Source: Escherichia phage vB_EcoS Sa179lw. From it: a DNA stretch of 46,833 nt. Of this stretch, positions 500-46,739 are shown in pieces; within the stretch, counting starts at the first letter, position 1, and each line of letters starts with the position of its first letter. The notes beneath the pieces are model-generated. The model was not told the DNA's origin, ran no database searches, and saw only the letters and a program-made list of their open reading frames with translations. The stretch is from the sequence record NC_054637.1; one strand, given 5' to 3'. Position numbers and translations under genes: made by a program.

Positions 500-639
500 C
501 ACCGTATATCTTTTGTTCATCATGGGCTGCTATCATTTAATCAGGAGGTAGCCCATGAACATAATCCCTATCACTTACTTTCTCACGCTCTACGCGCTCA
601 CTGATTCGCCATTGTTTGCACTGGCTACCGCCTCATGGT

Positions 640-665
640 GTTATATCTCCCTGTGTTATAATTCG
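640..665 (+). promoter_or_regulatory. Candidate extended -10 promoter (TGTTATAAT) upstream of the scaffold-like gene
   Basis: TGT+TATAAT at 654-662; weak -35. Confidence 0.3.
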
Positions 666-693
666 ACCACAAACTAACCGTGGAGAGTTAACC

Positions 694-2573
<1,880 letters not shown>

Positions 2574-11199: not shown

Positions 11200-11486
11200 A
11201 ATCCTTCCTCATTCATCTTCAGGAAAACAATCATGGCGGCGCGTAGTGGGTTTCTGTCTTCAGTGGTGAACTTTGAAGCCACGCCAAATGCCGTTGGCCA
11301 AGCCTGTGGGATGGTGTATTGATATGGCACGACTGCGATATGGTTTTCAACAATAATAGGCCATGCATCAGCTGGGTTGCTGCAGTAGTCTTTTGCCTTA
11401 AATGAATTCAATCCTGAAATTTGCATAATCTCTGCGTGCACACGGCAGTTAATTTCAAAATCACTCATCTCTTCATAATTTTTCAT
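11196..11486 (-). CDS. Hypothetical protein, 96 aa
   Basis: ORF track; overlapping start/stop. Confidence 0.45.
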   Translation of the reverse strand: MKNYEEMSDFEINCRVHAEIMQISGLNSFKAKDYCSNPADAWPIIVENHIAVVPYQYTIPQAWPTAFGVASKFTTEDRNPLRAAMIVFLKMNEEGL

Positions 11487-27256: not shown

Positions 27257-27647
27257 TTCCTTTTGAGCTTAAACTATCTTTCTCACGCCTTCCGATATAC
27301 TCTTTGCTTACATCATCATACAAAACACCAAACGCCTTGCAGAAATTAAATAGCGCGTCACCTGCGAATACTTCGCTCGGATGCCAGCTTCCTGATTTCA
27401 TTGCAACATCCCTGTATGATGCTGTTAATATACCGACATTGTTTTTGTGTTTTATCCTGCAAAACAAAACGTCATCATCAATGCAGACTCCCATATTGCA
27501 ACGGAACACGGGAAACTTCCAGTAGTAAACCTCCATCAGGTGTTTTCCTGTCATCAGGGAGATGGCGTTGTTATGTGCATGCTCAGGATTTTCTGATTCA
27601 AAGTAGTCATACAACCCTTTCATCACCAGAAACTTGTAGTTAATCAT
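27252..27647 (-). CDS. Hypothetical protein, 131 aa
   Basis: ORF track; coupled to the primase-polymerase gene. Confidence 0.5.
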   Translation of the reverse strand: MINYKFLVMKGLYDYFESENPEHAHNNAISLMTGKHLMEVYYWKFPVFRCNMGVCIDDDVLFCRIKHKNNVGILTASYRDVAMKSGSWHPSEVFAGDALFNFCKAFGVLYDDVSKEYIGRREKDSLSSKGI

Positions 27648-29977
27648 ATTTCAACCTCATCATTTGTTAATTTGTAAATAACTACAGCATTGCTTGTTCT
27701 TTTTGCGCTTTCATCTTTCTCAATAACACCATCTTCAATAAGTTTCTCTATACATCTTTTCACATCTTCGCGTTTATATCCGCCTTCTTTTGCCACGCCT
27801 CTAACTATTGCAGTTTTAGTCATTCCACGCTTCACATATTCTTTAACCATTGAGAAAATACCTTCAATTCTTTCTTCCATGGCTTTAGACTTCGCTCCGG
27901 CTATACTATCAGCACGCATCATCAGGTCGCTTGTTGATTTGATTGTTAATGCTACTGCATATCGCAAGTGCTCCATGGTTATAACTCCGGTATCGCACGC
28001 AAGAATGCCAGCAATCTTTGCAACTTTAACAGCACATCTGTTTATCAAAGGGTGATAACCAGTCCCGTTCTCTACATGCTTTCTTGCAATAGTCTTAATC
28101 CATGAGAAAAACTCTTTAGCAAGCCGTGACACCTCTGGTGTGGCCTTTATAATTCGTCTTTCATTTTGACTGATGATTGAATCGGTCCAGTTTTTGTATC
28201 CGGCAGCTCCTCCATTTATTATTGTTTTTATGGTCATTTGCATATCCATCGGGAGATCGCAGTAATTAACATTTTCGTTTTCGTCAGCAATCTCCTGCAA
28301 CTCCTGCATAATCATTGCACGACCCATAAGCCCTGACTTGATGTTCTCCTCAGTAATTAGGCGCTTGAACTGGTCATCAGTAGAAACACCGAAAATTGAG
28401 AAAAATGGATTTCTTATCGCTCCGTCAATTCGGTTTATGACTTCATCAAACTGACGCTTAATGTCAGCAGGGTCAGCTTGAATTTCGTTTTCTTCAATAG
28501 CCATCAACAACATAGCTTTTCTCTTTTCGAAAGCCTTAATGAACTCCTCTGTCACTCGTTGATCGCAATAAAGAACTTCAGATGTGTAAGCCTCCATGAT
28601 GGCACCAGCGGTTGCCATGTTGTACTCGCTTACCTTCTGACCAACAACACTCCCAAGTTTTATACCAATCTCATCCATGATGAGATTAAACATCTGGTTA
28701 GCACAAAGACCTTCATATATTGCACGCTCAGAGCGTATCTTGCCTGCAACTGTCTTACTCAGCCCTGAACAATCAATTATCTTTTGTAACGCTGCAAGAA
28801 CATCACCCTTACCAGAGCCCGAACCAGCGATACCAATGGCAAACAGATTTGGCAAAGCCTTCCTGTTTGTAAGATAAATATCAGATGACGCTCCGCAAAT
28901 CATGGATGCAGCGTGCAACGCAGCGAGTGCCGAAATGTTTTCACGCTTCTCTGCACAGTTCTTATTAATCCATGCTGTAAGACGCCCAACAAATCCTGGT
29001 GGATAACGAACATCAACACTCTTGTACTCTATTGGGCATTCACCAACACCCATTGCCATTTCTCTCTCGAAAGACTCAAGCTTCTCAATTTCCTCTGGCG
29101 TAGCCTCAAAAGTTACTTGCCTTACCCATCCACCCTCTTGTGCGAGATAAACCAGCGTTGCTTCTGTTATCTTTTCGCTAACACCGTCCTTACCGAATGA
29201 GTGCCATTTAGCGTCCATTTCCTCAGCTCTGTACTTGCTGAACTGAGAAGACCAGTTATCCCAAAGATCAAAACCATTGCCATCGGTGGCTTCGTGGATA
29301 GCCATCCCAACATGAATCCACGGGTCATACTCGTCTCCATCTTTGATGTATTTGAGCATATCCTCCATTTCGGCAATGCTGTAATTTTTACTATCAAGCG
29401 TAAAAATCTCATCTTCCGTTCGTTCAGGCCTAAGCAAAAGCTCAATAAGTTCAGATGGCGCTTCCGTTATCTCTGAAGGAGAACCGTGCTCTGCTTCGTA
29501 AAAGTTTCCTGACTTATGGAAAGAACCGCAGCCAATAACGAAACCAGATGATTTAAAGTCAATACCTTTAAATCTCCTGTCGTGAGATCGCAGCTTCACA
29601 TCAGCAGGAAGCTTGTAATAGATATGGCGACCACATCCACCAGTCTTAACCGTAAAACCAGCTTCGTCAGCAAGTTCAACATCTAACGTATCACAAAGCG
29701 CCTCGTATCCATCATTACCGCCATTTCTTGGGTCAATATCAACAACAAGGTACCCATTCACAAGAACGCCGAATGACTGTAACTTGCCATACTTAGCCAT
29801 GCTTTCAATCTGCTCATCATCCCACTGGACACCAAGCTGCCAGTTACTCATAACCGGATGCTTTCCAGCAGCCTTACATTCCGGATTTCCACAGGTACAG
29901 TTGCGATCCTCATCCATCGGATGAATGTCGATAATAGGGAAGCCGCATTTACGGTAATCTTCATAACCAATCATCAT
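27644..29977 (-). CDS. Bifunctional DNA primase-polymerase (PrimPol N-terminal domain plus C-terminal helicase-like region), 777 aa
   Basis: N-terminal primase-polymerase-like motifs (VVDIDPRNGG, KTGGCGRHIYY); large C-terminal domain; first large gene of the leftward operon. Confidence 0.75.
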   Translation of the reverse strand: MMIGYEDYRKCGFPIIDIHPMDEDRNCTCGNPECKAAGKHPVMSNWQLGVQWDDEQIESMAKYGKLQSFGVLVNGYLVVDIDPRNGGNDGYEALCDTLDVELADEAGFTVKTGGCGRHIYYKLPADVKLRSHDRRFKGIDFKSSGFVIGCGSFHKSGNFYEAEHGSPSEITEAPSELIELLLRPERTEDEIFTLDSKNYSIAEMEDMLKYIKDGDEYDPWIHVGMAIHEATDGNGFDLWDNWSSQFSKYRAEEMDAKWHSFGKDGVSEKITEATLVYLAQEGGWVRQVTFEATPEEIEKLESFEREMAMGVGECPIEYKSVDVRYPPGFVGRLTAWINKNCAEKRENISALAALHAASMICGASSDIYLTNRKALPNLFAIGIAGSGSGKGDVLAALQKIIDCSGLSKTVAGKIRSERAIYEGLCANQMFNLIMDEIGIKLGSVVGQKVSEYNMATAGAIMEAYTSEVLYCDQRVTEEFIKAFEKRKAMLLMAIEENEIQADPADIKRQFDEVINRIDGAIRNPFFSIFGVSTDDQFKRLITEENIKSGLMGRAMIMQELQEIADENENVNYCDLPMDMQMTIKTIINGGAAGYKNWTDSIISQNERRIIKATPEVSRLAKEFFSWIKTIARKHVENGTGYHPLINRCAVKVAKIAGILACDTGVITMEHLRYAVALTIKSTSDLMMRADSIAGAKSKAMEERIEGIFSMVKEYVKRGMTKTAIVRGVAKEGGYKREDVKRCIEKLIEDGVIEKDESAKRTSNAVVIYKLTNDEVEI

Positions 29978-33595: not shown

Positions 33596-34057
33596 ATGTC
33601 AGATAAACCAATCGGGCGACCGACAGAATACAAACCTGATTACGATGAGCAGGCTTACAACTATTGCCTGCTTGGCGCTACCGATAAGCAGCTTGCAACT
33701 TTCTTTGATGTGAGCGAGCAGACAATAAACGCGTGGAAGCACAAGCACCCTTCGTTTCTTGAGTCCTTAAGGCGCGGAAAGGAAATTGCAGATGCGCGAG
33801 TTGCTCAGGCTTTGTTCAGTAGGGCTACCGGTTATGAGCACCCAGAAGACGATATCAAGGCGGTTAATGGTGAAATAGTAATCACACCAACAATAAAAAG
33901 ATACCCGCCAGACCCTACATCAATGATTTTCTGGCTAAAAAACAGACAGCCAAAATTGTGGCGAGATAAACCTGAGTCGGAAGGTTCTGATGGTGACGGC
34001 GCAATCCATAAAGTGCAGATTGAGGTGATTAGTGCAGATAAGAGTAACGGCAACTGA
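33596..34057 (+). CDS. terS: Terminase small subunit, 153 aa
   Basis: Immediately upstream of and overlapping the large terminase; N-terminal HTH-like segment. Confidence 0.65.
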   Translation: MSDKPIGRPTEYKPDYDEQAYNYCLLGATDKQLATFFDVSEQTINAWKHKHPSFLESLRRGKEIADARVAQALFSRATGYEHPEDDIKAVNGEIVITPTIKRYPPDPTSMIFWLKNRQPKLWRDKPESEGSDGDGAIHKVQIEVISADKSNGN

Positions 34058-35339
34058 GCCACAAGCCAGATACCTGAATCTTAAGTGTAAATTCCCGGCT
34101 TTTATTGCTGGCTTTGGCACTGGAAAGTCAGAAACCATGTGCAACTCAGCACTTCTTGATAGCCTTGAGGGTGGTTCAGATAGTCTGGTCGCTTTGTATG
34201 AGCCGACCTATGACCTCGTGCGTCTTATTCTTGCCCCCCGCATGGAGGAGAAACTAATCGACTGGGGTGTCAGGTACAAATACAACAAGGCAGAGAACAT
34301 AATTTACACGTCATCAGGACAGATGGGGGATTTTGTCCTCAGGACTCTTGATAATCCAGCGCGAATAGTTGGTTATGAGTCGTTCAGGGCAAAGATAGAC
34401 GAAATTGACACCCTTAAGCAAGAACATGCATCTGAGGCGTGGATAAAAATAATTGCCCGTAATCGACAGCGCCCAAGAACTTATATGGATACCTCAGGAA
34501 AGCCAATGAACACTGTTGGCATATTCTCAACCCCAGAGGGGTTCCGGTTTGTTTATGACAGATGGGTAAAGAACAAAAAGGATGGGTACGAAATGGTGCA
34601 GGCAAGCACTATGAGCAACCCTTTCCTTCCTGATGATTACGTTCAGTCGCTGCGAGATAGCTATCCACCGCAACTCATTGAGGCATATTTGCAGGGCGAG
34701 TTTGTAAACCTCACATCTGGCACTGTCTATCCTCAATTCGACAGGAATCTTAATCACAGCGATGAGGAATACAGGACGGGTGAGCCAGCCCATGTCGGCA
34801 TGGACTTCAACGTAGGAAAGATGTCTGCGATTATCCATGTTGAAAGGAATGGCGACCCGATCGCAGTTGGCGAGATACTCGGAGCTTACGATACGCCGGA
34901 AATGATTCGGTTAATAAAACAGCGCCTGTGGAGGGAGACATCAAATGGCGAGTTTGAGAAACTGTGTGAAATTTATGTTTATCCTGATGCATCGGGCGGT
35001 AGCCGTAAAACCGTGAACGCTGGCACGTCAGATATAGCCTTATTGAGAGATGCTGGCTTTCATGTTATGGCTGACAGTAAGAACCCGCCGGTCAGGGACC
35101 GCATCAACTCTGTTAACGCGATGTTCTGCAACGCTGAAGGCGAGCGCAGATACAAGGTAAATACAAAGCTGTGCCCAATCTACACTGAGGCGAGAGAGCA
35201 GCAGATTTACAACAAGCAGGGAGAACCAGACAAAACTCACGATAAGGACCACCCGAACGATGCGGCTGATTATTACATTTATAATAAGTTCCCACTCGTA
35301 CGACCAATGGCAGCAATGCTAATTCGGCGCAGGCGTTAA
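34032..35339 (+). CDS. terL: Terminase large subunit, 435 aa
   Basis: Walker A GFGTGKS near the N-terminus; C-terminal nuclease-like acidic motifs; GTG start after GAGGTGA. Confidence 0.85.
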   Translation: MQIRVTATEPQARYLNLKCKFPAFIAGFGTGKSETMCNSALLDSLEGGSDSLVALYEPTYDLVRLILAPRMEEKLIDWGVRYKYNKAENIIYTSSGQMGDFVLRTLDNPARIVGYESFRAKIDEIDTLKQEHASEAWIKIIARNRQRPRTYMDTSGKPMNTVGIFSTPEGFRFVYDRWVKNKKDGYEMVQASTMSNPFLPDDYVQSLRDSYPPQLIEAYLQGEFVNLTSGTVYPQFDRNLNHSDEEYRTGEPAHVGMDFNVGKMSAIIHVERNGDPIAVGEILGAYDTPEMIRLIKQRLWRETSNGEFEKLCEIYVYPDASGGSRKTVNAGTSDIALLRDAGFHVMADSKNPPVRDRINSVNAMFCNAEGERRYKVNTKLCPIYTEAREQQIYNKQGEPDKTHDKDHPNDAADYYIYNKFPLVRPMAAMLIRRRR

Positions 35340-35342
35340 AAA

Positions 35343-35366
35343 TAAAGCCCTCAAATGAGGGCTTGT
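35343..35366. terminator. Bidirectional terminator between terminase and a convergent gene
   Basis: Hairpin AAGCCCTCAAATGAGGGCTT; T tract on the minus strand. Confidence 0.55.
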
Positions 35367-35369
35367 TGG

Positions 35370-35723
35370 CTAGTGTGTGTACATGATGCTTTTGCACGTT
35401 TTCATTGGCACACCGATTGCATCCCAAAATTCGACGTTTTCACAAGCCAAAAAGCAAAACAGCATTGATTGAGGCCATGAAGAATGAGCACTTTTCCAGT
35501 AGGTGCCGCGCTTGATTTGCTCGGCTTCATCGTTGAGGCAGTGAATAAAGAATTCTGTGCCATCGCTGGTTTCATTCCATTCGTGTGATTTACCCAAGCA
35601 GAAATGGTGCAGAAAGCGGTCTATGTAGGATGATTTGCTTGCTGATATCCCCATTACAATCATTCTGATAACCCTAATAGCATATACGTTCTGCACTTCA
35701 GCACTTCGTTCATGACCTTGCAT
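35370..35723 (-). CDS. Hypothetical protein, 117 aa
   Basis: ORF track; ATG 35723 lies downstream of the promoter at 35768-35800. Confidence 0.5.
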   Translation of the reverse strand: MQGHERSAEVQNVYAIRVIRMIVMGISASKSSYIDRFLHHFCLGKSHEWNETSDGTEFFIHCLNDEAEQIKRGTYWKSAHSSWPQSMLFCFLACENVEFWDAIGVPMKTCKSIMYTH

Positions 35724-35767
35724 TGCCTTATCCTAATTCATCTGCGACCCCGCGCCGCTCTATGAGT

Positions 35768-35800
35768 TAAATCTACATCACCAACATATCTACGTCAACA
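35768..35800 (-). promoter_or_regulatory. Leftward early promoter: TTGACG, 17-bp spacer, TAGATT (minus strand)
   Basis: -35 at 35793-35798, -10 at 35770-35775 on the minus strand. Confidence 0.55.
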
Positions 35801-35834
35801 TTTATTATTGTTGTTGATAAATCCACACCACAAC

Positions 35835-35868
35835 ACTTGACCAATCTACACCGTGCGCATATAGTTAT
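35835..35868 (+). promoter_or_regulatory. Rightward early promoter: TTGACC, 17-bp spacer, TATAGT
   Basis: -35 at 35837-35842, -10 at 35860-35865; AATCTACACC in the spacer. Confidence 0.6.
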
Positions 35869-35896
35869 CTACATCGGAAACATCGGAGGTGCTACT

Positions 35897-36103
35897 ATGC
35901 GCAGCTATGCAGGATTTACACAGGAGGAAAAAGAGCAGGTTTATTCACTGGCGCGTGCTGGTGTGCCTGATGATGTGATTTGCCGTCGGTATGACATCGA
36001 CGAGGATTTCCTGCTGCGCGTCATTGATGATGTCTTCGTTAACCTGCAAGAGAAGCGTGGGTACAAGGGTATCTGCTGCAAGAATGATTTTTTGAGAGGG
36101 TGA
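35897..36103 (+). CDS. Hypothetical protein, 68 aa
   Basis: ATG at 35897 preceded by GGAGGTG. Confidence 0.5.
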   Translation: MRSYAGFTQEEKEQVYSLARAGVPDDVICRRYDIDEDFLLRVIDDVFVNLQEKRGYKGICCKNDFLRG

Positions 36104-36294
36104 TTATGAGAGATTTTGTAAGAGATTTTCTGTTATTGGTATTAAGTACACCATCGCATTGGTGATTGCTTTCCCGCTTATCTGGCTGATTAGATGGGAA
36201 GCGCCAAGTATTGATGACATTCTAAACTGGCAGGTTTTCAGGATTTTTATCGGCTTGTGGATTTTATCAGCCATTGCCGCATGGTGGGTTAATC

Positions 36295-36702
36295 ATGTTC
36301 AGGAATAAACTAAAGAAAATAATCCGCGACGCTGCGGATAAGAAATACACCAAAAAGATTGATATATCATTCATTGACGGCACTGGAATGTACAACCACG
36401 CATGTCATCTGAATGCGGTAAATCGTGCGCGTGATGGGAGTTCGTGCGCAGTGGTTGAGGTTGTGGTGATTGATGACAAATCGGTGACCGCTCATTACAT
36501 CAATATGCAGTCAGACGGTACATACATCGACTACACGCTCGGCTGGCACTGGTCTGGTGCTGATTACCGATTTGTGCGCTTCGTCCCGTTCACGGAATGG
36601 GCTGATATTACTGGCGCGCTAAACAGGCTTAAAGCTGAACTGTGCAAGCCGGTGGCTAAATGGCAGAAGTTGTTAATGGTAACTGATGGTGAACTTTGTT
36701 GA
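36295..36702 (+). CDS. Hypothetical protein, 135 aa
   Basis: ORF track with internal ATG (MFRNKLKK) chosen. Confidence 0.5.
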   Translation: MFRNKLKKIIRDAADKKYTKKIDISFIDGTGMYNHACHLNAVNRARDGSSCAVVEVVVIDDKSVTAHYINMQSDGTYIDYTLGWHWSGADYRFVRFVPFTEWADITGALNRLKAELCKPVAKWQKLLMVTDGELC

Positions 36703-36711
36703 GGTGATGTG

Positions 36712-36906
36712 ATGATTATTGATGAAACAGAAAATGCATATGACATGCACGTAACTGAGCAAGAGCTTGAGGATGGAACCCCTGTCGTAGAGTTGTATCA
36801 AGAGAATGGCTCAGGTGTCGACTCATTTATTGGCATAGACAAACACCAAGCCTCGCAACTAATCGAAGTCCTGCAACGCTGGGTTAATGGTGAGGAGATT
36901 GAGTGA
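36712..36906 (+). CDS. Highly acidic small protein, 64 aa
   Basis: About 16 D/E versus 2 K/R; RBS GAGGTGA. Confidence 0.5.
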   Translation: MIIDETENAYDMHVTEQELEDGTPVVELYQENGSGVDSFIGIDKHQASQLIEVLQRWVNGEEIE

Positions 36907-37136
36907 TGATGAATACCAAACAAAGATACAGGATGGGATATTGCGTCTGGCTGCAAGAGACTATTAGTGATTTTCTTGATAAGAAAATGTTGGCAGACAT
37001 GGTTTATGGATTGTTGTGTTTCCTGCTGCTTATCTCTTTTCCAGTTTCAATGCCGATGGTTGCTGCAATAAGAATGATAGTAACCAAGCGGAATATTAGA
37101 AAACAGTATGCTCGCGATGAACTGATGGAGGATTGA
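36903..37136 (+). CDS. Small membrane protein, 77 aa
   Basis: Hydrophobic segment LADMVYGLLCFLLLISFPVSMPMVAAI; coupled to neighbours. Confidence 0.45.
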   Translation: MMMNTKQRYRMGYCVWLQETISDFLDKKMLADMVYGLLCFLLLISFPVSMPMVAAIRMIVTKRNIRKQYARDELMED

Positions 37137-37139
37137 GTG

Positions 37140-37451
37140 ATGAGCATAAAAAATCCAATGCACCCGGGCGAGTTTCTGCTGGAGGCATTCATGAAGCCAT
37201 TCGGAATTGGTGTTAAGAAAATGGCCGATGCACTTGGGGTTTCGCAGTCAACAGTTAGCAGGCTCATCAACAAGAAGGCTGATTTAACTGCCGACATGGC
37301 TGTCAGATTGTCCGTTGTTGTTGGGAGGTCACCAGAGTCATGGTTGAATATGCAAAACAATTACAGCCTAAATAGACTTACCGCCGATAATGGTCGCTTA
37401 CTGTCATCTTTGAAGCCAATTAAATTTGATTTTGATTACAAGGTGGAGTGA
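37140..37451 (+). CDS. higA: HigA-like XRE-family HTH antitoxin homolog, about 103 aa
   Basis: HPGEFLLEAF...SQSTVSRLINKKADLTADMAVRLSVVVGRSPESWLNMQNNYSL closely parallels the recalled E. coli HigA sequence; no HigB/RelE-like partner adjacent. Confidence 0.8.
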   Translation: MSIKNPMHPGEFLLEAFMKPFGIGVKKMADALGVSQSTVSRLINKKADLTADMAVRLSVVVGRSPESWLNMQNNYSLNRLTADNGRLLSSLKPIKFDFDYKVE

Positions 37452-37654
37452 TGGACAGAAAACATCTTCACGAGATGGCTGTTGAACTCAGAAAAAGGGT
37501 TGAGGGCATCTGGTTTGATAGTCATGATAAATTCAATAATAAGCAGTATCAGGTTTACGCAAAATGCAGGGGGTTGGTGCTCGGCGATAGGATGGAAAAC
37601 GCTGTATTCCATCACAGTAACGCCATGATACACAAGCGAGCTTTCGACTACTGA
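37448..37654 (+). CDS. Hypothetical protein, 68 aa
   Basis: ORF track; ATGA coupling to the HigA-like gene. Confidence 0.45.
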   Translation: MMDRKHLHEMAVELRKRVEGIWFDSHDKFNNKQYQVYAKCRGLVLGDRMENAVFHHSNAMIHKRAFDY

Positions 37655-37664
37655 TACCATGCTA

Positions 37665-37695
37665 TAATCCCTCCATCGTGAGGGATTTTTTATTG
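37665..37695 (+). terminator. Rho-independent terminator before the portal gene
   Basis: Hairpin ATCCCTCCATCGTGAGGGAT followed by TTTTTATT. Confidence 0.65.
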
Positions 37696-37702
37696 GTGAC
37701 AT

Positions 37703-39115
37703 ATGTCAAAAATTGATGCATTAGACGCCTATATACGCGACCGCGTGGCGAACAATAACCGGGCTATTCAACAGCAGCGGCTTTGTGCTGGAGGGAAGAA
37801 TCTTGACCAGAAACATGACAGGTTGTGGCAGGAATGCGGATACCCGCAGGAAATCACCGCTGAGATGTTCCGCTATGCCTACGAACGGCACCCAGCAGCC
37901 GCAGCTGGCATTAACCGCATTATTAATAAATGTTGGCAGAAATACCCCGAAGTGGTAGAAGATGGCGAGGATGACAAGAATTCAACGTCGTGGGAGTTGT
38001 CCATCAATGACATGATGAAGCGTGCATACCCGTTCATCAAAGAGGCTGACAAGCGCAACGCCATCAACCGCTATTCCGCCGTTATCCTGCAAATCCGCGA
38101 TGGTAAACAATGGAGTGAGCCGGTAGACATCACCAAAACACGCCGCATTAAAGATAAATCCATTGTTCGCTTTATTCCTGTGTGGGAGGAGCAACTCCGC
38201 GTCAGTGCGTGGAATAACGACGAAACCAGCGAAGACTACGGTATGCCTGAGATGTACGAATACCAGGAAAGCGCCGTGGAAGATTTCGATAGTGACGGCA
38301 AGCCTGAACGTTCCGTGCAGATTCACCCTGACCGCATTATTATTCTTGCAGAGGGTAGCTTTGATGGCAGCATGTTCAGTGGCATCCCGATGCTACGTGC
38401 TGGCTACAACAGCCTTATCGACATGGCAAAGGTTTCAGGCAGTTCCGCGGAAGGCTTCCTGAAGAATGCCAGTCGTCAGCTGGCTGTTAACTACACGAAG
38501 GATAACGTAACACCAGTGAGTCTTGCGCAGTCGATGGGTGTCGATATTGAAGAGCTCACCGACATCATGAATGAGAACATTGAGGCACTGAACTCCGGGA
38601 TTGACGCCGCTATGTTCACAATGGGCGCGGATGCAAAAGTTCTCGCTGTGACTCCCGCTGACCCAAAACCAACATGGGAAGTGGCTGCCAACCAGTTCGC
38701 TGCGTCAATGGCGCTTCCGTTTACTGTTATTTTTGGGCAACAGACCGGAAGGCTTGCAAGCGATGAGGATAAGATGCAGGAGGCAATGACCGCCAAGCAG
38801 CGCCGCGAAACGTGGGTTGATTATGTCATCTCAATGTTCGTTGAGCGCATGATTCAGTTCGGCATTGTCGATAAAGCACCGGCAAATGGCTACAAAGTTA
38901 AGTGGGATGATTTGCTGGCACCATCGGAACTTGATAAGGCTGAATTGCTGTCCAAGCTCGCCACTGCGAATAAGTCATTCTTTGATGCTGGTCAGTCTGC
39001 GTTGCTGAGCGTCGATGAAGCTCGTGGCATGGTTGGTATGGAGCCGATTGAACTCGACGAAAGCTACCGCGAAGACACGCCTCCGGAAGACGAAAATGAA
39101 GATACTCCGGTTTAA
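37703..39115 (+). CDS. Portal protein, 470 aa
   Basis: Size and position between terminase and the head morphogenesis gene; acidic C-terminus. Confidence 0.65.
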
Positions 39116-40046
39116 CGCACGCCTTCCACAGCCGCGCATATCACAGAGCCTGACCGACCCGCTGGGCTCTGCAACTCGCCTGTCGAAGATGGACAAAGCG
39201 ATAACGCGCAAATACAAACAGCTCAGGTCTCGTGCGCTTGAGTTGTTTCGCACTATTCCGAGCAGTCAGGCCAACGCAGAATCAAGTGGGTTGTATTTCT
39301 ATGACTTCAGTAGTGCGCGAGCTGCAACTTTCATGGATGAGTTGCAGGCGCTGATTGATGAGATTCTGCTGGAAGGTGATGATTTCGGTCACGGCAGGAT
39401 GTGGGCGAACGTGTTCATTGGTGATGCGTATCAGGCCGGAACGCAGAAGGCCAACTCTGAGCTGTCAATCCTGTCTCCCGTTTACGCCGAGCAACGACCG
39501 ATTGCTGCGATACTCTATAGCGAACCATACCTTAACCGCCTGCAACTGGCTTACACGGCGGGATACAGTGACTGGCGCGGCTTGAGTGATTATTCACGGC
39601 AGCAGCTGGCATCTGTCATTATGGAAGGCATTGCCCGTGGCGCAAATCCTCGCGACGTTGAGGCTGATATTGTTAAGCGTGTTGATGTGTCGCACAGTTA
39701 CGCCAAGCAAATTGCGCAGACTGAAATTACCGGAACACTACGTCAAGCCAACAGGCGTGAGGTCATTGAGGCTCGCGAAGAGTTAGGCATTGAGACTGTA
39801 ATGCTGTGGCAGTCGGCACTGATGCGAACAACCCGCCAGACTCACGCGTCGAGACATGGGCGGTTTTATACGCCAGAAGAGATTGATACGTTTTATAGCG
39901 AGGTAGCAAACCGCAGAAATTGCCACTGCAGCCAAGTCCCAGCACTTGTGATGGATGGTAAGCCAGTAATTCTTGAATCATCACAAGAGCGGTTGGATAA
40001 GCAACGCGAAGCGTGGCAATCAGCAAACAAAAAGCCCTCTAAGTGA
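39096..40046 (+). CDS. Putative head morphogenesis protein (Mu gpF / SPP1 gp7-like), about 316 aa
   Basis: Position directly after portal; start chosen at internal ATG overlapping the portal end. Confidence 0.5.
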
Positions 40047-41223: not shown

Positions 41224-41382
41224 TCACTTAATATATTCAACAATCTCACACTCGCGCATTTGCATCAAACCAAATGGTGCAACTACCTTTCCGCACGGAC
41301 TGATTTTGATTTGCTCAAGATCGAACACTCCGCAGCGTCCGTTTTCTTTGAATTTGACAATTACCATTTTGCAACCATCCAT
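41224..41382 (-). CDS. Hypothetical Cys-containing protein, about 52 aa
   Basis: Manual translation MDGCKMVIVKFKENGRCGVFDLEQ...; start uncertain. Confidence 0.3.
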   Translation of the reverse strand: MDGCKMVIVKFKENGRCGVFDLEQIKISPCGKVVAPFGLMQMRECEIVEYIK

Positions 41383-41627: not shown

Positions 41628-41906
41628 ATGAAACTATCGCGACGCGGCAAAGAGACGCTTGGAATCACCGATGCCGTGGATATATCGCCTTACATCACCA
41701 CCGAGACGACACAGAATCAGTTTGATGCGCTGACGAGCCTTGCTACTGACATTGGCATTGACGTGTTCCGTAAATCAACGCTTCTGAAGAAGCACAATCT
41801 CCGCTGCTTCTCATGTGCTGTTGCGCATTTCATCGTGTGGGGCGAGAAGACTGGCGACAAAGCAAAACGCAAAGCTGAAAAAGAGGTTTACTGGTATGGC
41901 TATTAG
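41628..41906 (+). CDS. Hypothetical hydrophilic protein, 92 aa, overlapping the endolysin start
   Basis: RBS AGGAGG before ATG 41628; no transmembrane segment seen. Confidence 0.5.
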   Translation: MKLSRRGKETLGITDAVDISPYITTETTQNQFDALTSLATDIGIDVFRKSTLLKKHNLRCFSCAVAHFIVWGEKTGDKAKRKAEKEVYWYGY

Positions 41907-42360
41907 CAAAAACATGAAGGCATTTTTGGATATGCTGGCGTACAGTGAGGGCACGGATAACGGGCGACAGAAAACTAATAATCATGGCTATGATGTGATT
42001 GTTGGTGGCTCACTGTTTACTGACTATTCCGACCACCCACGCAAGCTGATTAGCCTGCCAAATCTGGGTATCAAATCCACTGCCGCCGGGCGCTATCAGG
42101 TGCTGGCTAAGTTCTATGATGCGTACAAAAAGCAGTTGCGCCTGCCTGACTTCTCTCCCGCATCGCAGGACGCTATTGCAATACAGCTAATTCGTGAATG
42201 CAAAGCCACCGCCGATATTGAGGCTGGTCGCATTGCTGATGCTATTCATAAATGCCGTTCCCGCTGGGCCTCACTGCCGGGCGCTGGTTATGGTCAGCAT
42301 GAGCAAAAACTGGATAAGCTGATTCAGGTGTACAAGTCCGCTGGCGGGACGGTCGCATGA
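41896..42360 (+). CDS. R: Endolysin, lambda R-like lytic transglycosylase, 154 aa
   Basis: KAFLDMLAYSEGTDNGRQKT.NHGYDVIVGG.LFTDYSDHPRKL and WASLPGAGYGQ match the lambda R sequence as recalled. Confidence 0.85.
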   Translation: MAISKNMKAFLDMLAYSEGTDNGRQKTNNHGYDVIVGGSLFTDYSDHPRKLISLPNLGIKSTAAGRYQVLAKFYDAYKKQLRLPDFSPASQDAIAIQLIRECKATADIEAGRIADAIHKCRSRWASLPGAGYGQHEQKLDKLIQVYKSAGGTVA

Positions 42361-42596
42361 AAAAGCTAAGCAACTGGCTGCTTGGCCTGTGGATTTCATT
42401 CTGCTCGCTATTGCAGATATGGCCTGAGTCCATGCTTTATGTGTGGGCCATGATGCCGGACGACCTGAAATCTGCGCTGCCACCTTTTGCTGTTAAAGGG
42501 GTCAGTTATTCCGTTATGCTGGCGGCGATTCTTGGCAAGATGCATGCGATGAATAAGGCGAATAAGAGGCTAAAAGATGAGAGTAATGATGCGTGA
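42357..42596 (+). CDS. Candidate holin (two hydrophobic segments, charged C-terminus), 79 aa
   Basis: Hydrophobic segments LSNWLLGLWISFCSLLQIW and VSYSVMLAAILG; ATGA coupling to the endolysin gene. Confidence 0.45.
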   Translation: MKKLSNWLLGLWISFCSLLQIWPESMLYVWAMMPDDLKSALPPFAVKGVSYSVMLAAILGKMHAMNKANKRLKDESNDA

Positions 42597-42718
42597 AATA
42601 CATAAGTCCATAAAGGCGCGAGGTGGTTTTTATTCTGCATATCAGACCACCAAGGGATTGCACCTCATAACCAATTGCATGGCATTCCCACATCTGTGGC
42701 TGGCGGGAGCACTGAAAG

Positions 42719-43210
42719 ATGATGGCAATTCTCACTAAATACTGGCGACCGCTGGCAATTATTATAATTGTCGCTATCTGCGCGCTATGGGTTGTTAACA
42801 AGGTGTCCAGCTATGGTGAGCAGAGATACAACGACGGGTATGCGAAGGCTGTAGCAGAACAGAAGGCCGCAAACAAAAAAGAGGAGCAACGACGCAATGC
42901 AGAACTGCAAAAGATTCAGGCTGACGCACAACAAAGGATTGATGCTGCGCGCAACGATGCTGTCAACGCTGCTGCTAAGTCTGGCAGGTTGCAGCAACAG
43001 CTCGCAAATATCCGCAAGCAGCTTGTCGGATATTCCGCCGCTGAGTTCATTGGCAATCCAGCCGCAGAAACCGGAGTTTTGCTTGCCGACGTGCTCAGCA
43101 AATCTGTCGAAAGAAATCGACAGCTGGCAGATTACGCTGACAGGGCAAGAGAAGCAGGATTAGCGTGTGAGGCGCAGTACAATTCGCTGCGCAATAAAAA
43201 AGCCCCGTAA
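42719..43210 (+). CDS. Rz: Rz-like i-spanin, 163 aa
   Basis: N-terminal TM segment followed by coiled-coil-like Q/A/R/E-rich periplasmic domain; position after the endolysin. Confidence 0.65.
   Translation: MMAILTKYWRPLAIIIIVAICALWVVNKVSSYGEQRYNDGYAKAVAEQKAANKKEEQRRNAELQKIQADAQQRIDAARNDAVNAAAKSGRLQQQLANIRKQLVGYSAAEFIGNPAAETGVLLADVLSKSVERNRQLADYADRAREAGLACEAQYNSLRNKKAP
42942..43163 (+). CDS. Rz1: Rz1-like o-spanin lipoprotein, embedded in the +1 frame of the Rz-like gene
   Basis: Lipobox-like LSLAGC followed by a Pro-rich segment; entirely within the Rz-like gene. Confidence 0.55.
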   Translation: MLRATMLSTLLLSLAGCSNSSQISASSLSDIPPLSSLAIQPQKPEFCLPTCSANLSKEIDSWQITLTGQEKQD

Positions 43211-43349: not shown

Positions 43350-43655
43350 TCACTCTGCTGGTAATGTTGTTGGCTCATCAACAGATTCCTCGACCGCAGC
43401 TTCAACGATGCGCACCAACGAACACTCAAGGTTCGGCGCATTATAATTGCCAGCCAGAAACAGCACGCTACCAGTGCTAATCAACACCTGTTTTGCGCTT
43501 GCCTGCGACAGATTCTGCACGATGAATTGTGCTGTTTCGGTACCAATTTTTAGCACTGCGCTGCCGTCGCTGTTCAGTGATACCAGTTGTGCGGATGTGT
43601 CAGCGATGTTGGTGTAGTTCGCGTTTCGTTGCGCGATTGTGATGTCTGTGAACAT
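43350..43655 (-). CDS. Hypothetical protein, 101 aa
   Basis: ORF track; ATG lies one nt after the stop of the upstream reading frame. Confidence 0.5.
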   Translation of the reverse strand: MFTDITIAQRNANYTNIADTSAQLVSLNSDGSAVLKIGTETAQFIVQNLSQASAKQVLISTGSVLFLAGNYNAPNLECSLVRIVEAAVEESVDEPTTLPAE

Positions 43656-43656
43656 A

Positions 43657-43877
43657 TTAGCCTCTTACGTTTAATTTGATTTTTCCATCCACGTCGCGTG
43701 ATGCACACTCAACAGTGATTGTTAACTTGGTGATCTCTTCGACGTCTGCATCAAGAATCAAGCGGATGCAACCACCAACTATTCTACCATCCTGATCAAC
43801 AACGCGAATTTTATCATCGACTCTTTCAACGTGGAGCCAGACTTTTTTTCGTCACACCCGTTATTGAGGATTGCCAT
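43657..43877 (-). CDS. Hypothetical protein needing a -1 frameshift at A_AAA_AAG (or containing a homopolymer indel); fused product about 73 aa
   Basis: ATG at 43877 after GGAGAG; frame 0 stops after 32 codons; the -1 frame continues without a start codon to a stop at 43657-43659. Confidence 0.4.
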
Positions 43878-44416
43878 TATTTAATCTCTCCATTCAGTTC
43901 ATTGACAATTAACGTCGCATAGCCAGCAATATCTTTCCAGCTATCATCATATGTCGGGTCGCCATTCAGGATGCGCCCAATCTTGTGCTGAATCATGTCT
44001 AGCGCCTCGCGTTGGCTTGGCGTCAGATTGTGCCACCCATCCACTTCGCGCATCACATCTTTCAGCTCCTGCATGATTTCAGCACCGTCTTTGAACTTAC
44101 CGTATCGACTGCCGCGTTCGGTGATGAGTTGCTCAGTAGTATCAGCTTCCGGCGCGCCAATGCAATCATTGAGGTCTTGTTCGTCGTTGATTGGTTTACG
44201 ATGAGCGATAACCTCATACATATCCATGTCTTCGACAAATTGATTAACGCGACCATTGTTGGCAACATCTTGATATGCGCCATATTTATTCAAGTGCTCA
44301 ACGAAATAATATTTCGAATCAATCAACCTCCCCTTGAGAGTCGCCCAGTCTGGCGCACCATCAAAATCCTTCTCGCAACCTTTCAGGTATTTCCACGCTT
44401 TCATTTCTCTCTCCAC
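43877..44416 (-). CDS. Hypothetical protein, 179 aa
   Basis: ORF track; TAATG coupling downstream. Confidence 0.5.
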   Translation of the reverse strand: MEREMKAWKYLKGCEKDFDGAPDWATLKGRLIDSKYYFVEHLNKYGAYQDVANNGRVNQFVEDMDMYEVIAHRKPINDEQDLNDCIGAPEADTTEQLITERGSRYGKFKDGAEIMQELKDVMREVDGWHNLTPSQREALDMIQHKIGRILNGDPTYDDSWKDIAGYATLIVNELNGEIK

Positions 44417-44625
44417 TTAATCATCTCGCGTCGCGGCATTGTGACGCGGTTGTATTCATCAACATTAAAATTCGCCCTAATCAAATCATACATCTCATCC
44501 TTTGGCATATCAGCCAGTGCCACATAGCAACGGGCAAAGTAGCGAACATCACGGAGTGTTAGCGGCTGTCGCTTCTCCACAATGCTGGTGATAATGTCCA
44601 TCGGCTCTCGTCGTGGTCTTGGCAT
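44401..44625 (-). CDS. Hypothetical protein, about 74 aa
   Basis: ATG at 44625 after AAAGGAG. Confidence 0.45.
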   Translation of the reverse strand: MPRPRREPMDIITSIVEKRQPLTLRDVRYFARCYVALADMPKDEMYDLIRANFNVDEYNRVTMPRREMIKWREK

Positions 44626-44725
44626 ATTTACTACTCCTTTTTCGAAATTATTGTTGACCAATCTACATCATTTAGTCAATACTTATTGACGTAGATTGTA
44701 CCACAACGGAAAAGGTGATGTGGAA

Positions 44726-44983: not shown

Positions 44984-45178
44984 ATGGCGAATGACGAGCT
45001 GTACGAAAAATCGTTAATCCAGCGACTGAATGAAGTCGAAAGCACTCGCGAATGGCTGGAGCGTGAATTGCGTGAAGTGCGAAACCGCCTGCAACGCAAG
45101 CGTAGTCAGCAGAAAGACATTATTGACTGGTCCGGCGATAAGCCTAAGTTTAATAATATTGGGGAGTGGACGAAGTGA
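44984..45178 (+). CDS. Hypothetical coiled-coil protein, 64 aa
   Basis: ORF track; E/R/L-rich. Confidence 0.45.
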   Translation: MANDELYEKSLIQRLNEVESTREWLERELREVRNRLQRKRSQQKDIIDWSGDKPKFNNIGEWTK

Positions 45179-45489
45179 ATGATTTAAGCGTTGGCGACAA
45201 AGTTGTCATTAGAAATAGATATGGAGTAACCATCTCAAGAATCGTTCGTGAAACGGCTAAGCAATGGATTGTAGAAGGTACAGAGAACGGCAGCGTAAGG
45301 AGATTCAGAAAATCAGACCTTATTGAGATTGGTTGCGATGTGTGGCACATAGTTAGCATATCAAAATGCACTGACGACATAGAGAATGAGATTCGCAAAA
45401 AACAAATAGTCAGGATGATTGAGGTTAAGGGTGACTTAAGCAAGCTACCACTTACTGAGTTAGTTTCTTTATGGGAGAAAGTTAAATGA
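45166..45489 (+). CDS. Hypothetical protein, 107 aa (GTG start)
   Basis: ORF track; overlaps neighbours. Confidence 0.45.
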   Translation: MDEVNDLSVGDKVVIRNRYGVTISRIVRETAKQWIVEGTENGSVRRFRKSDLIEIGCDVWHIVSISKCTDDIENEIRKKQIVRMIEVKGDLSKLPLTELVSLWEKVK

Positions 45490-45731
45490 CAGCACCACAT
45501 ATGCCGATGATGAATGATGAAGGCTTGCTGGAGTGCCCATTCTGCAACAGCCATGAAATCAAGTTATATAACGACGATGGGATGTATTTCGCCATGTGCG
45601 AGTGCGGCTGCTCAAGTGATGTTCACATAACGAAGTTGGCGGCCGCCACCCAATGGAACACTCGCAACGGACGCCTCTACACCGCTGACGATTTCAATCA
45701 GACAGCTGAGGAGCGCGAACATGGACTATAA
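45486..45731 (+). CDS. lar: Lar-family-like restriction alleviation protein (Cys-rich), 81 aa
   Basis: LLECPFCNSHEI ... MCECGCSSDVH ... ATQWNTRNG matches the recalled Lar-family pattern (CPFCG ... second Cys pair ... AWNRR). Confidence 0.55.
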   Translation: MTAPHMPMMNDEGLLECPFCNSHEIKLYNDDGMYFAMCECGCSSDVHITKLAAATQWNTRNGRLYTADDFNQTAEEREHGL

Positions 45732-46209
45732 ATCACAAATCATGCGCGTGATTATCAATCATCCAGGCGCAACTCGCGCATACATTGAGAAGCATTGCGG
45801 AGGAAAGCATTCAAGCACCACAACGCATCGTTTGCATGAGATGCTTGCGCTTGGCTTTATTCGCCGTGAGAAGTCAGTGATTCGTGGTGGCAAGTGGCAG
45901 TACAAGTATTTCATCTCTGATGATGCTGCTGGCATTGATGATGCTATCAGGTGTCACTTGCTGGGCAATGCTGGCTCAGAGGTGAAAGAAATTAGTGCCG
46001 CCACTGGCATTGACTACCGAATCGTGAAAAGCCGCATCCGCATCATGTTCCATAACAGCGATGTTACGCGAAGCTATGACCACCACAAGAAGCTGTGGCG
46101 TTACTCATGGCAGGAGCGGGAAGTAAATGTGAGCAACCTGTTTAATTCACTTCTTCGCAATGCAAGGAGTCATCATGGGGAAAGCCAAGCGCAAGAAACA
46201 AGAGTATGA
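45721..46209 (+). CDS. Putative winged-helix DNA-binding protein, 162 aa
   Basis: wHTH-like segment THRLHEMLALGFIRRE; function tentative. Confidence 0.4.
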   Translation: MDYKSQIMRVIINHPGATRAYIEKHCGGKHSSTTTHRLHEMLALGFIRREKSVIRGGKWQYKYFISDDAAGIDDAIRCHLLGNAGSEVKEISAATGIDYRIVKSRIRIMFHNSDVTRSYDHHKKLWRYSWQEREVNVSNLFNSLLRNARSHHGESQAQETRV

Positions 46210-46351
46210 ACCGCTACCGCCATACGAAATATCAGGCATGCCTCAGCAGGAGGATGTGATTCTCACCGAAGCTGAATGGCGCAAAGTGGCAAGAGTGCAA
46301 ATCATGTTCCGCAAACTTGCCGAGGATGTACTAAATGAGATGGGCTATTAA
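46175..46351 (+). CDS. Hypothetical protein, about 58 aa
   Basis: ATG at 46175 five nt after AAGGAG. Confidence 0.4.
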   Translation: MGKAKRKKQEYEPLPPYEISGMPQQEDVILTEAEWRKVARVQIMFRKLAEDVLNEMGY

Positions 46352-46739
46352 GCATAAATCCGGCAGAACTCTGTTTGTGACATCAGATGAGTTTATTGCC
46401 AATAACCGTAGAAAGATGGGCTGGATAGTGGAGGAAGTGAAGATGACGAGTAGAGAGCGGTTTGAAGAAGAAATGAGCGATAAATATGAGTGGTTCAGTG
46501 ATGCGATCGCTTGTGCTGATTTTTGCGGTGACGATGATGATGGCTACTATGTTGGCGGTGATTATCTCTATTATGGAACTTCATGTTCAGAGGCTTTGTT
46601 CTGGTTATGGCGAGGATGGCAGGCATCGCGAGCGGCTATTCAGATTCAGGCATGCCCATACCCAAACAACCACGGACCACATGTTGATGACTATTACCTC
46701 GACCAAATTAACAACGCAGGCTTAAAGGTAAAAAAATGA
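46335..46739 (+). CDS. Hypothetical protein, 134 aa, with acidic Cys-containing segment
   Basis: ORF track; coupled (ATGA) to the gene at 30-356 via the duplicated end. Confidence 0.5.
   Translation: MRWAIKHKSGRTLFVTSDEFIANNRRKMGWIVEEVKMTSRERFEEEMSDKYEWFSDAIACADFCGDDDDGYYVGGDYLYYGTSCSEALFWLWRGWQASRAAIQIQACPYPNNHGPHVDDYYLDQINNAGLKVKK

Follow-up and report, generated by a model that had tools for sequence, protein, structure and literature searches.

A mosaic Lar-family gene with a hypervariable core in the small-gene operon of Escherichia phage vB_EcoS Sa179lw

Lar, Ral and the wider family

The Lar protein of the Rac prophage relieves EcoKI restriction and raises modification by the same enzyme (King & Murray 1995, as cited in PMC11482910 and PMC4041452), and the Ral protein of phage lambda speeds the de novo methylation that type IA enzymes carry out, acting through HsdM's N-terminal domain (PMC12707154). 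In the literature that we searched, Rac Lar (RalR) is the only experimentally characterised member of the Lar family besides one observation of conditional essentiality in phage Bas63, and the same search returned no solved structure or mechanism for the family. The family is very large, with 7380 representative clusters found by a profile of the clade studied here (E <= 1e-3), yet in the literature searched the function of these thousands of clusters rests on one genetic study from 1995. Many proteins of the wider family contain two to five tandem CPFC...WNxR domains (the 295-aa protein P0063 has five; P0065-P0069 are further examples), an architecture that is absent from the family name.

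Here we describe a Lar-like gene in the genome of Escherichia phage vB_EcoS Sa179lw (NC_054637.1), for which the whole stretch of 46,833 nucleotides was analysed (hereafter, the window).

The gene and its operon

The window is the nearly complete genome of a small siphovirus in the Skatevirus cluster. Its closest record is Escherichia phage ChristineMuster_Bas80 (hereafter Bas80; PQ850597, 47,021 bp), with ~90% identity over the region of the Lar-like gene. The layout of the window is as follows.

616 to ~22300, plus strand: structural genes (PHROG annotation)
22450 to ~31700, minus strand: replication genes (PHROG annotation)
34032-40046, plus strand: terminase, portal and head genes (PHROG annotation)
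41815-43210, plus strand: lysis genes (PHROG annotation)
43350-44625, minus strand: small genes (PHROG annotation)
44626..44719, no strand assigned: divergent intergenic region at the start of the small-gene operon with the Lar-like gene (promoter-like hexamers and inverted repeat)
45166..45489, plus strand: 107-aa ORF with a GTG start and a stop codon overlapping the Lar-like ATG; a rare, replaceable cassette (ORF listing)
45473..45477, plus strand: Shine-Dalgarno-like GGGAG, 8 nt 5' of the Lar-like ATG (read from the sequence)
45486..45731, plus strand: Lar-family gene for a predicted zinc ribbon (ORF, PF14354, PHROG 599, dN/dS and AF2 model)
45721..46209, plus strand: 162-aa winged-helix (MarR-like) gene with an 11-nt overlap with the Lar-like gene (PHROG 1687)

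The rightward small-gene operon, in which the Lar-like gene is the fourth gene, runs past the end of the window and resumes at its start, and the same layout is found in Bas80, LPST10, Bas78, Klebsiella phage YX3973 and Vibrio phage pYD38-A (Roufvirus). Overlapping promoter-like hexamers, which are consensus matches only, lie on both strands of the intergenic region 44626-44719. An imperfect inverted repeat of 26 nt in the same region (44651-44676 / 44681-44706), whose halves are 77% complementary, contains recurring TTGAC motifs; this element (44651-44706) could be an operator.

The two genes that flank the Lar-like gene are less constant than the operon itself. The 107-aa protein encoded upstream occurs in 4 of 50,697 phage records, all of them Salmonella Enteritidis phages; its ORF is not in LPST10, and Bas80 and Bas78 have other sequence at the site. 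Its match to Phage_ProQ_C_like is weak and sub-threshold (E 0.013). The 162-aa protein encoded downstream matches PHROG 1687 'MarR family' over its full length (E 1.6e-57) and reaches 18.5 bits against Pfam MarR_2 (cutoff 27); its second half also weakly matches a PHROG for 'Ren-like exclusion protein' (E 2.9e-5). This winged-helix gene adjoins the Lar-like gene in Bas80, YX3973 and pYD38-A and is represented by two ORFs in LPST10, and an HNH endonuclease gene takes its place in Bas78. The earlier note on this DNA, made by a model from the letters and ORF translations, had placed the Lar-like gene in a cluster of small genes beside a putative winged-helix regulator and had taken this setting as consistent with an anti-restriction role. 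Both the cluster and the neighbour were recovered, the latter through PHROG 1687. As functional evidence the adjacency to the winged-helix gene adds little or nothing, because it is not universal, as Bas78 demonstrates.

Several other features of the window were recorded. Just 5' of the head decoration and major capsid genes lies a 496-aa ORF with a listed TTG start (616-2106, plus strand), which falls in PHROG 760 (unknown function) and has only a faint match to a family of head maturation proteases. The counterpart in Bas80, a hypothetical protein, is annotated with 470 aa, so that translation of the ORF probably starts further downstream than listed. A 134-aa protein with several Cys and Asp runs (46335-46739, plus strand; PHROG 343, unknown function) has a weak, sub-threshold match at residues 94-111 to the phage Rmf/CrpP-fold family (E 0.012). 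The BASEL table lists one tRNA for Bas80; tRNA and Rfam scans of the whole window detected no tRNA gene and no Rfam family.

In the ORF listing, the Lar-like ORF (45486..45731, plus strand) has an ATG start, 81 codons for amino acids and a TAA stop. The protein is MTAPHMPMMNDEGLLECPFCNSHEIKLYNDDGMYFAMCECGCSSDVHITKLAAATQWNTRNGRLYTADDFNQTAEEREHGL, with five Cys (C17, C20, C38, C40 and C42) and with the motifs CPFC at residues 17-20, CECGC at 38-42 and WNTR at 57-60. Its ATG forms an ATGA overlap (45486-45489) with the TGA stop of the 107-aa ORF, and its TAA sits 11 nt within the next ORF, which begins with the ATG at 45721. Internal ATGs at codons 6, 8 and 9 were read as having no Shine-Dalgarno-like sequence upstream of them. 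We found that the ratio dN/dS to the Bas80 orthologue is 0.11 (21 synonymous and 15 non-synonymous differences), which indicates purifying selection, and that full-length homologues occupy the same operon position in ~200 phage records. On the strength of these two results, the Shine-Dalgarno-like sequence and the ATGA overlap, the ORF is a real gene, and its start and stop signals suggest a genuine, translationally coupled gene in a packed phage operon. That the ORF arose by chance, or that it is a gene in decay without function, could be argued from its short length (81 codons) and from the mosaic surroundings, in which cassettes are gained and lost. The low dN/dS and the breadth of full-length homologues speak against this, as do Cys and WNTR positions that are invariant over 59 homologues and a ribosome-binding signal and overlapping start and stop codons of the kind usual for a packed operon. 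The conservation data effectively refute it, and we assign it a vanishingly small probability.

Family membership, predicted fold and a hypervariable core

The Lar-like protein belongs to the Lar family. In the Pfam scan, PF14354 (Lar_restr_allev) was matched with 34.8 bits against a gathering score of 28.6 (E 2e-8), residues 13-61 aligning to model positions 2-58 of 58, and PHROG 599 'Lar-like restriction alleviation protein' was matched with E 3.8e-13. The score against TIGR03655 (anti_R_Lar) was 31.6 bits (E 1.5e-7), under the cutoff of 39.6; for comparison, Rac Lar scores 55.3, and positional orthologues with other core types pass (P0043, 52.0; P0049, 40.1). By BLASTP, the K-12 Lar/RalR protein is 30% identical over 54 aa, with the CPFC motif, the second Cys pair and WNxR aligned, and comparing a profile built from 26 clade members with Rac Lar gives an hhalign probability of 97.4% (E 1.2e-11). 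All 26 sampled clade members match PF14354 and 25 match TIGR03655, some of them above its cutoff; the columns for CPFC, the second Cys pair and WNxR do not vary within the clade or among distant family members. Against the RalR equivalog model NF007260, the Lar-like protein reaches 13.8 bits (cutoff 113; Rac RalR itself 166), which makes it a member of the Lar family and not a Rac Lar orthologue. Orthology to the RalR toxin was rejected on the same score.

Many GenBank and RefSeq orthologues are already labelled Lar-like, among them those of Bas80, STGO-35-1, DS8, LPST10 and IME207, and the best cluster representative among the matches returned from a collection of 5.8 billion proteins is 85% identical to the protein described here. 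Some GenBank records carry the label 'primase-helicase zinc-binding domain' instead, which was rejected, as the protein has no Zn_Ribbon_Prim match and the phage has its own primase. The earlier note had picked out an 81-aa Cys-rich ORF at 45486-45731 and read it as a Lar-like candidate from its CPFC, a second Cys pair and a WN(T)R segment near the C-terminus. The ORF and all three motifs are present; only the position given for the last is a rough one, because WNTR closes the predicted zinc-ribbon domain, after which comes a tail of 21 residues. The profile search against the Lar family that the note had proposed was positive (PF14354 above its gathering score, PHROG 599 and the hhalign comparison), and the reading as a Lar-like candidate is borne out by the profiles and by the annotation of the orthologues. 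'Candidate' is also the right word, since restriction alleviation is deduced from ~30% identity to a single characterised member. The gene is an unremarkable member of the Lar family that had been recognised correctly; its protein adds one more sequence to a known kind, and on its own the ORF matters little beyond confirming a routine annotation.

The gene is divided into four segments that differ in conservation.

45486..45545, plus strand: near-invariant N-terminal segment MTAPHMPMMNDEGLLECPFC, with the first knuckle C17-P-F-C20 at 45534-45545 (59 clade homologues)
45546..45653, plus strand: hypervariable core, codons 21-56, with the second Cys cluster C38-E-C40-G-C42 at 45597-45611
45654..45671, plus strand: WNTRxG (W57 N58 T59 R60 N61 G62), helix end and family hallmark (clade conservation)
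45672..45728, plus strand: clade-specific C-terminal tail RLYTADDFNQTAEEREHGL, with a predicted helix at residues 67-78, outside the Pfam domain

In the first knuckle, which aligns to the CPFC of Rac Lar, C17 and C20 are invariant and P and F are at least 95% conserved over the 59 homologues; the residue after it, usually G, is N21 here. C38 and C40 of the second knuckle are invariant in the clade. The arrangement seen here, CxC spacing plus a third Cys (C42), is rare, with CxxC or CxxCxC in most homologues. W57, N58, T59 and R60 are invariant or nearly so in the clade, and correspond to WNKR in Rac Lar and to WNTR or WNxR in distant members. The AF2 model (pLDDT 84.7) places a beta-hairpin at residues 25-38 and helices at 50-57 and 67-78, with pLDDT dropping to 51-78 in the tail; the Pfam match stops before the tail, at residue 61. 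In the predicted fold, a beta-hairpin is clamped by two Cys knuckles and followed by a helix that ends in WNTR and by a clade-specific C-terminal helix. Zinc binding is probable from the four-Cys ribbon pattern and from structural matches of the model to zinc ribbons.

To describe variation within the clade, we compared the 59 homologues and grouped their cores into types with a threshold of 55%. The mean identity between pairs is 0.87 for residues 1-20, 0.28 for the core (residues 21-56; at least 28 unrelated types) and 0.47 from residue 63 to the end (8 types), and WNTRxG (57-62) is invariant or nearly so. Only C38, C40 and A53 are kept across the clade within the core. The same core type can carry different C-terminal tails, and the tail types combine with different cores, which indicates recombination. 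The same pattern is visible in DNA: identity to LPST10 is 77-93% at 45480-45539, 83-87% at 45660-45719 and ~90% in the downstream genes, and falls to ~40-47% across the core (45570-45659). This drop places the mosaic boundaries inside the Lar-like gene. Within one core type (the gene described here compared with Bas80), dN is 0.047 and dS is 0.687 in the core, which again indicates purifying selection, and the alleles are therefore discrete and maintained and not simply decaying. The core type found here is common only to Bas80, STGO-35-1, EI_sp1/2 and DS8-like phages. We found no simple correlation between core type and host, because this one type is present in phages of E. coli as well as in those of Shigella and Salmonella.

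Discrete core types that are under purifying selection and recombine with tails are compatible with a host-adapted binding surface, and the hypervariable core may be a swappable region that sets the host target recognised. A bolder version of this idea, to which we give a low probability, is that the locus would be a cassette-type counter-defence locus, in which a fixed scaffold (the N-terminal 20 residues, the four Cys and WNTRxG) would carry an exchangeable 36-residue core. Dozens of discrete alleles under purifying selection would then be shuffled by recombination in the conserved gene ends, each allele recognising its own variant of a host target that is polymorphic, for example type I restriction-modification (R-M) families or another defence protein. 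If true, the locus would offer a naturally occurring library of specificities for an anti-restriction family that is mechanistically unsolved. The architecture of scaffold plus variable core is the only aspect of the locus worth follow-up, and if it reflects target specificity it would provide an experimental handle on the Lar family. The Skatevirus clade would serve this purpose as a compact natural experiment, with one scaffold, many core alleles and phages (BASEL Bas77-81) able to plate on derivatives of E. coli K-12.

Restriction and rival functions

The explanation that we prefer, with moderate confidence, is that of a genuine, translationally coupled gene whose product, probably a zinc-binding ribbon protein of the Lar family, would serve host takeover in the way suggested by homology to Rac Lar, with the core perhaps setting the target. 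By binding to the methyltransferase core of a type I (type IA-like) R-M enzyme of the host, the Lar-like protein would tip this enzyme away from cleaving unmodified phage DNA and towards its methylation. The outcome would be a partial, system-specific relief from restriction. What the analysis shows is that the gene is real, conserved, mosaic and a member of the Lar family; zinc binding, the target and any effect on restriction are what we infer for this protein. Features that sit uneasily with this explanation include the missed TIGR03655 and RalR cutoffs and the non-canonical CxC(xC) second knuckle. The gene is a plausible accessory counter-defence gene, which is relevant where such phages are considered for therapy or biocontrol.

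Published plating data bear on the strength of any such effect. In the BASEL extension paper, the Skatevirus phages Bas77-81, all of which carry the Lar-like gene, are described as 'markedly sensitive to RM systems' (PMC11990801). Bas80 has an EOP of 0.04-0.2 on EcoKI with 1 site and of 2e-4 to 1.3e-3 on the type I system EcoCFT_I with 3 sites; the sister phages that carry the gene range from 0.02 to 0.2 on EcoKI at 1 site and from ~1e-4 to 1e-3 on EcoCFT_I at 2-3 sites, Bas78 and Bas79 plating similarly to Bas80 on both systems (PMC11990801 supplement). That these sister phages are still restricted means that any alleviation is partial or aimed at other systems, and a strong general anti-type-I activity of the Lar-like protein is unlikely. 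The window contains two EcoKI sites (AACN6GTGC), compared with 6.7 +/- 2.7 expected from shuffles, and the BASEL Skatevirus relatives Bas77-81 have 1-2 each.

11438-11450, minus strand: EcoKI site
41268-41280, plus strand: EcoKI site

This mild depletion suggests some site avoidance, alongside any anti-restriction gene, rather than reliance on an inhibitor. The EOPs and EcoKI site counts are not decisive on function, since the comparison is not isogenic, all phages in it carrying the Lar-like gene, and since type I restriction at a single site is weak in itself.

The rival that we take most seriously, although we consider it rather unlikely, keeps the fold and the family and changes the target: the Lar-like protein, a small zinc ribbon, would bind another host factor (another defence, such as type IV restriction, or a host enzyme) and neutralise or hijack it, and 'restriction alleviation' would be a label carried over from Rac Lar. 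A single function is unlikely for a family of 7380 representative clusters, with tandem arrays and a fusion to the C-terminus of DnaE1 (PMC3919608). A Bas63 gene reported as 90% homologous to Lar is conditionally important in strains without an intact type I R-M system, for which the authors suggest type IV (PMC11482910), and both the sensitivity of Skatevirus phages to the two type I systems tested and the hypervariable core on a fixed scaffold would fit a different target. None of our results indicates an alternative target, however, and the sole experimental precedent in the Lar family is type I alleviation. The BASEL assays include only phages with the Lar-like gene, which leaves room for partial alleviation.

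The two remaining rivals are far less probable. A nucleic-acid-binding zinc ribbon in phage replication or transcription is suggested by the label 'zinc-binding domain of primase-helicase' on the orthologues of LPST10 (KY860935) and ZCKp20p, by one clade member that matches Pfam Zn_Ribbon_Prim (E 1.5e-4) and by the top structural match, Elf1, an RNA polymerase-associated zinc ribbon. The Lar-like protein itself gives no Zn_Ribbon_Prim match even at E <= 1, a separate 777-aa primase is encoded at 27644..29977 in a different, oppositely oriented module, and a hypervariable core would be unusual for a replication component, so that we regard this reading as improbable. A RalR-like toxin or DNase that cuts DNA non-specifically, for example host DNA in infection, has a marginally smaller chance still. 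One study reported that RalR (= Lar) acts as a non-specific endonuclease, whether or not the DNA is methylated, and that it serves as toxin in a type I toxin-antitoxin pair (PMC4041452), and NCBIfam names the prototype accordingly. The score against the RalR equivalog model stands far below its cutoff, the predicted model contains no nuclease fold or catalytic motif and has plain zinc ribbons as its structural matches, and a hypervariable core is hard to square with a conserved active site. Nor did an antisense RNA family come to light: no Rfam family reached its gathering score anywhere in the window, a scan that a trans-encoded sRNA acting as a RalA-type partner could escape.

Comparison with known systems

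The preferred reading of a Lar-family protein acting on a type I enzyme can be set against known systems. The closest are the positional orthologues annotated as 'Lar-like restriction alleviation protein' in Skatevirus and Roufvirus (Bas80_0028, XPK40551.1; LPST10 gp49; YX3973 gp46), which occupy the same place in the operon, and for which the literature searched contained no experimental work. Their N-terminus and WNTRxG are identical to those described here, whereas the core is one of at least 28 types and the gene immediately upstream differs; the Bas80 protein is 88% identical to the Lar-like protein. At the other extreme, the generic zinc ribbons Elf1, the C-terminal domain of aIF2-beta and the ClpX ZBD give weak structural scores, are without WNxR and belong to unrelated biology, and the resemblance to them shows only that the Lar-like protein is a zinc ribbon.

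Rac Lar/RalR of E. coli K-12 (b1348, 64 aa) has the same CPFC knuckle, second Cys pair, helix and WNxR, and both proteins are small, phage-borne and encoded in an operon of small accessory genes. The Lar-like protein differs in an 8-residue N-terminal extension, in a CxCxC second knuckle where Rac Lar has CxxC, and in a 21-residue helical tail in place of the unrelated Gly/Asn-rich tail of Rac Lar. The genetic setting also differs, as the Lar-like gene lies in a virulent siphovirus and Rac Lar in a cryptic lambdoid prophage, and Rac RalR is accompanied by the RalA antisense RNA, whereas the Rfam scan detected none with the Lar-like gene. Lambda Ral is a functional analogue with no sequence relationship; it is not a Cys-rich zinc ribbon, and the Ral family gave no match to the Lar-like protein in the Pfam scan at E <= 1. 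Both proteins are small and encoded among small accessory genes and, if the homology to Rac Lar is a sound guide, the phenotype expected of the Lar-like protein would be that of lambda Ral, a partial alleviation of type IA restriction via enhanced de novo methylation (PMC12707154).
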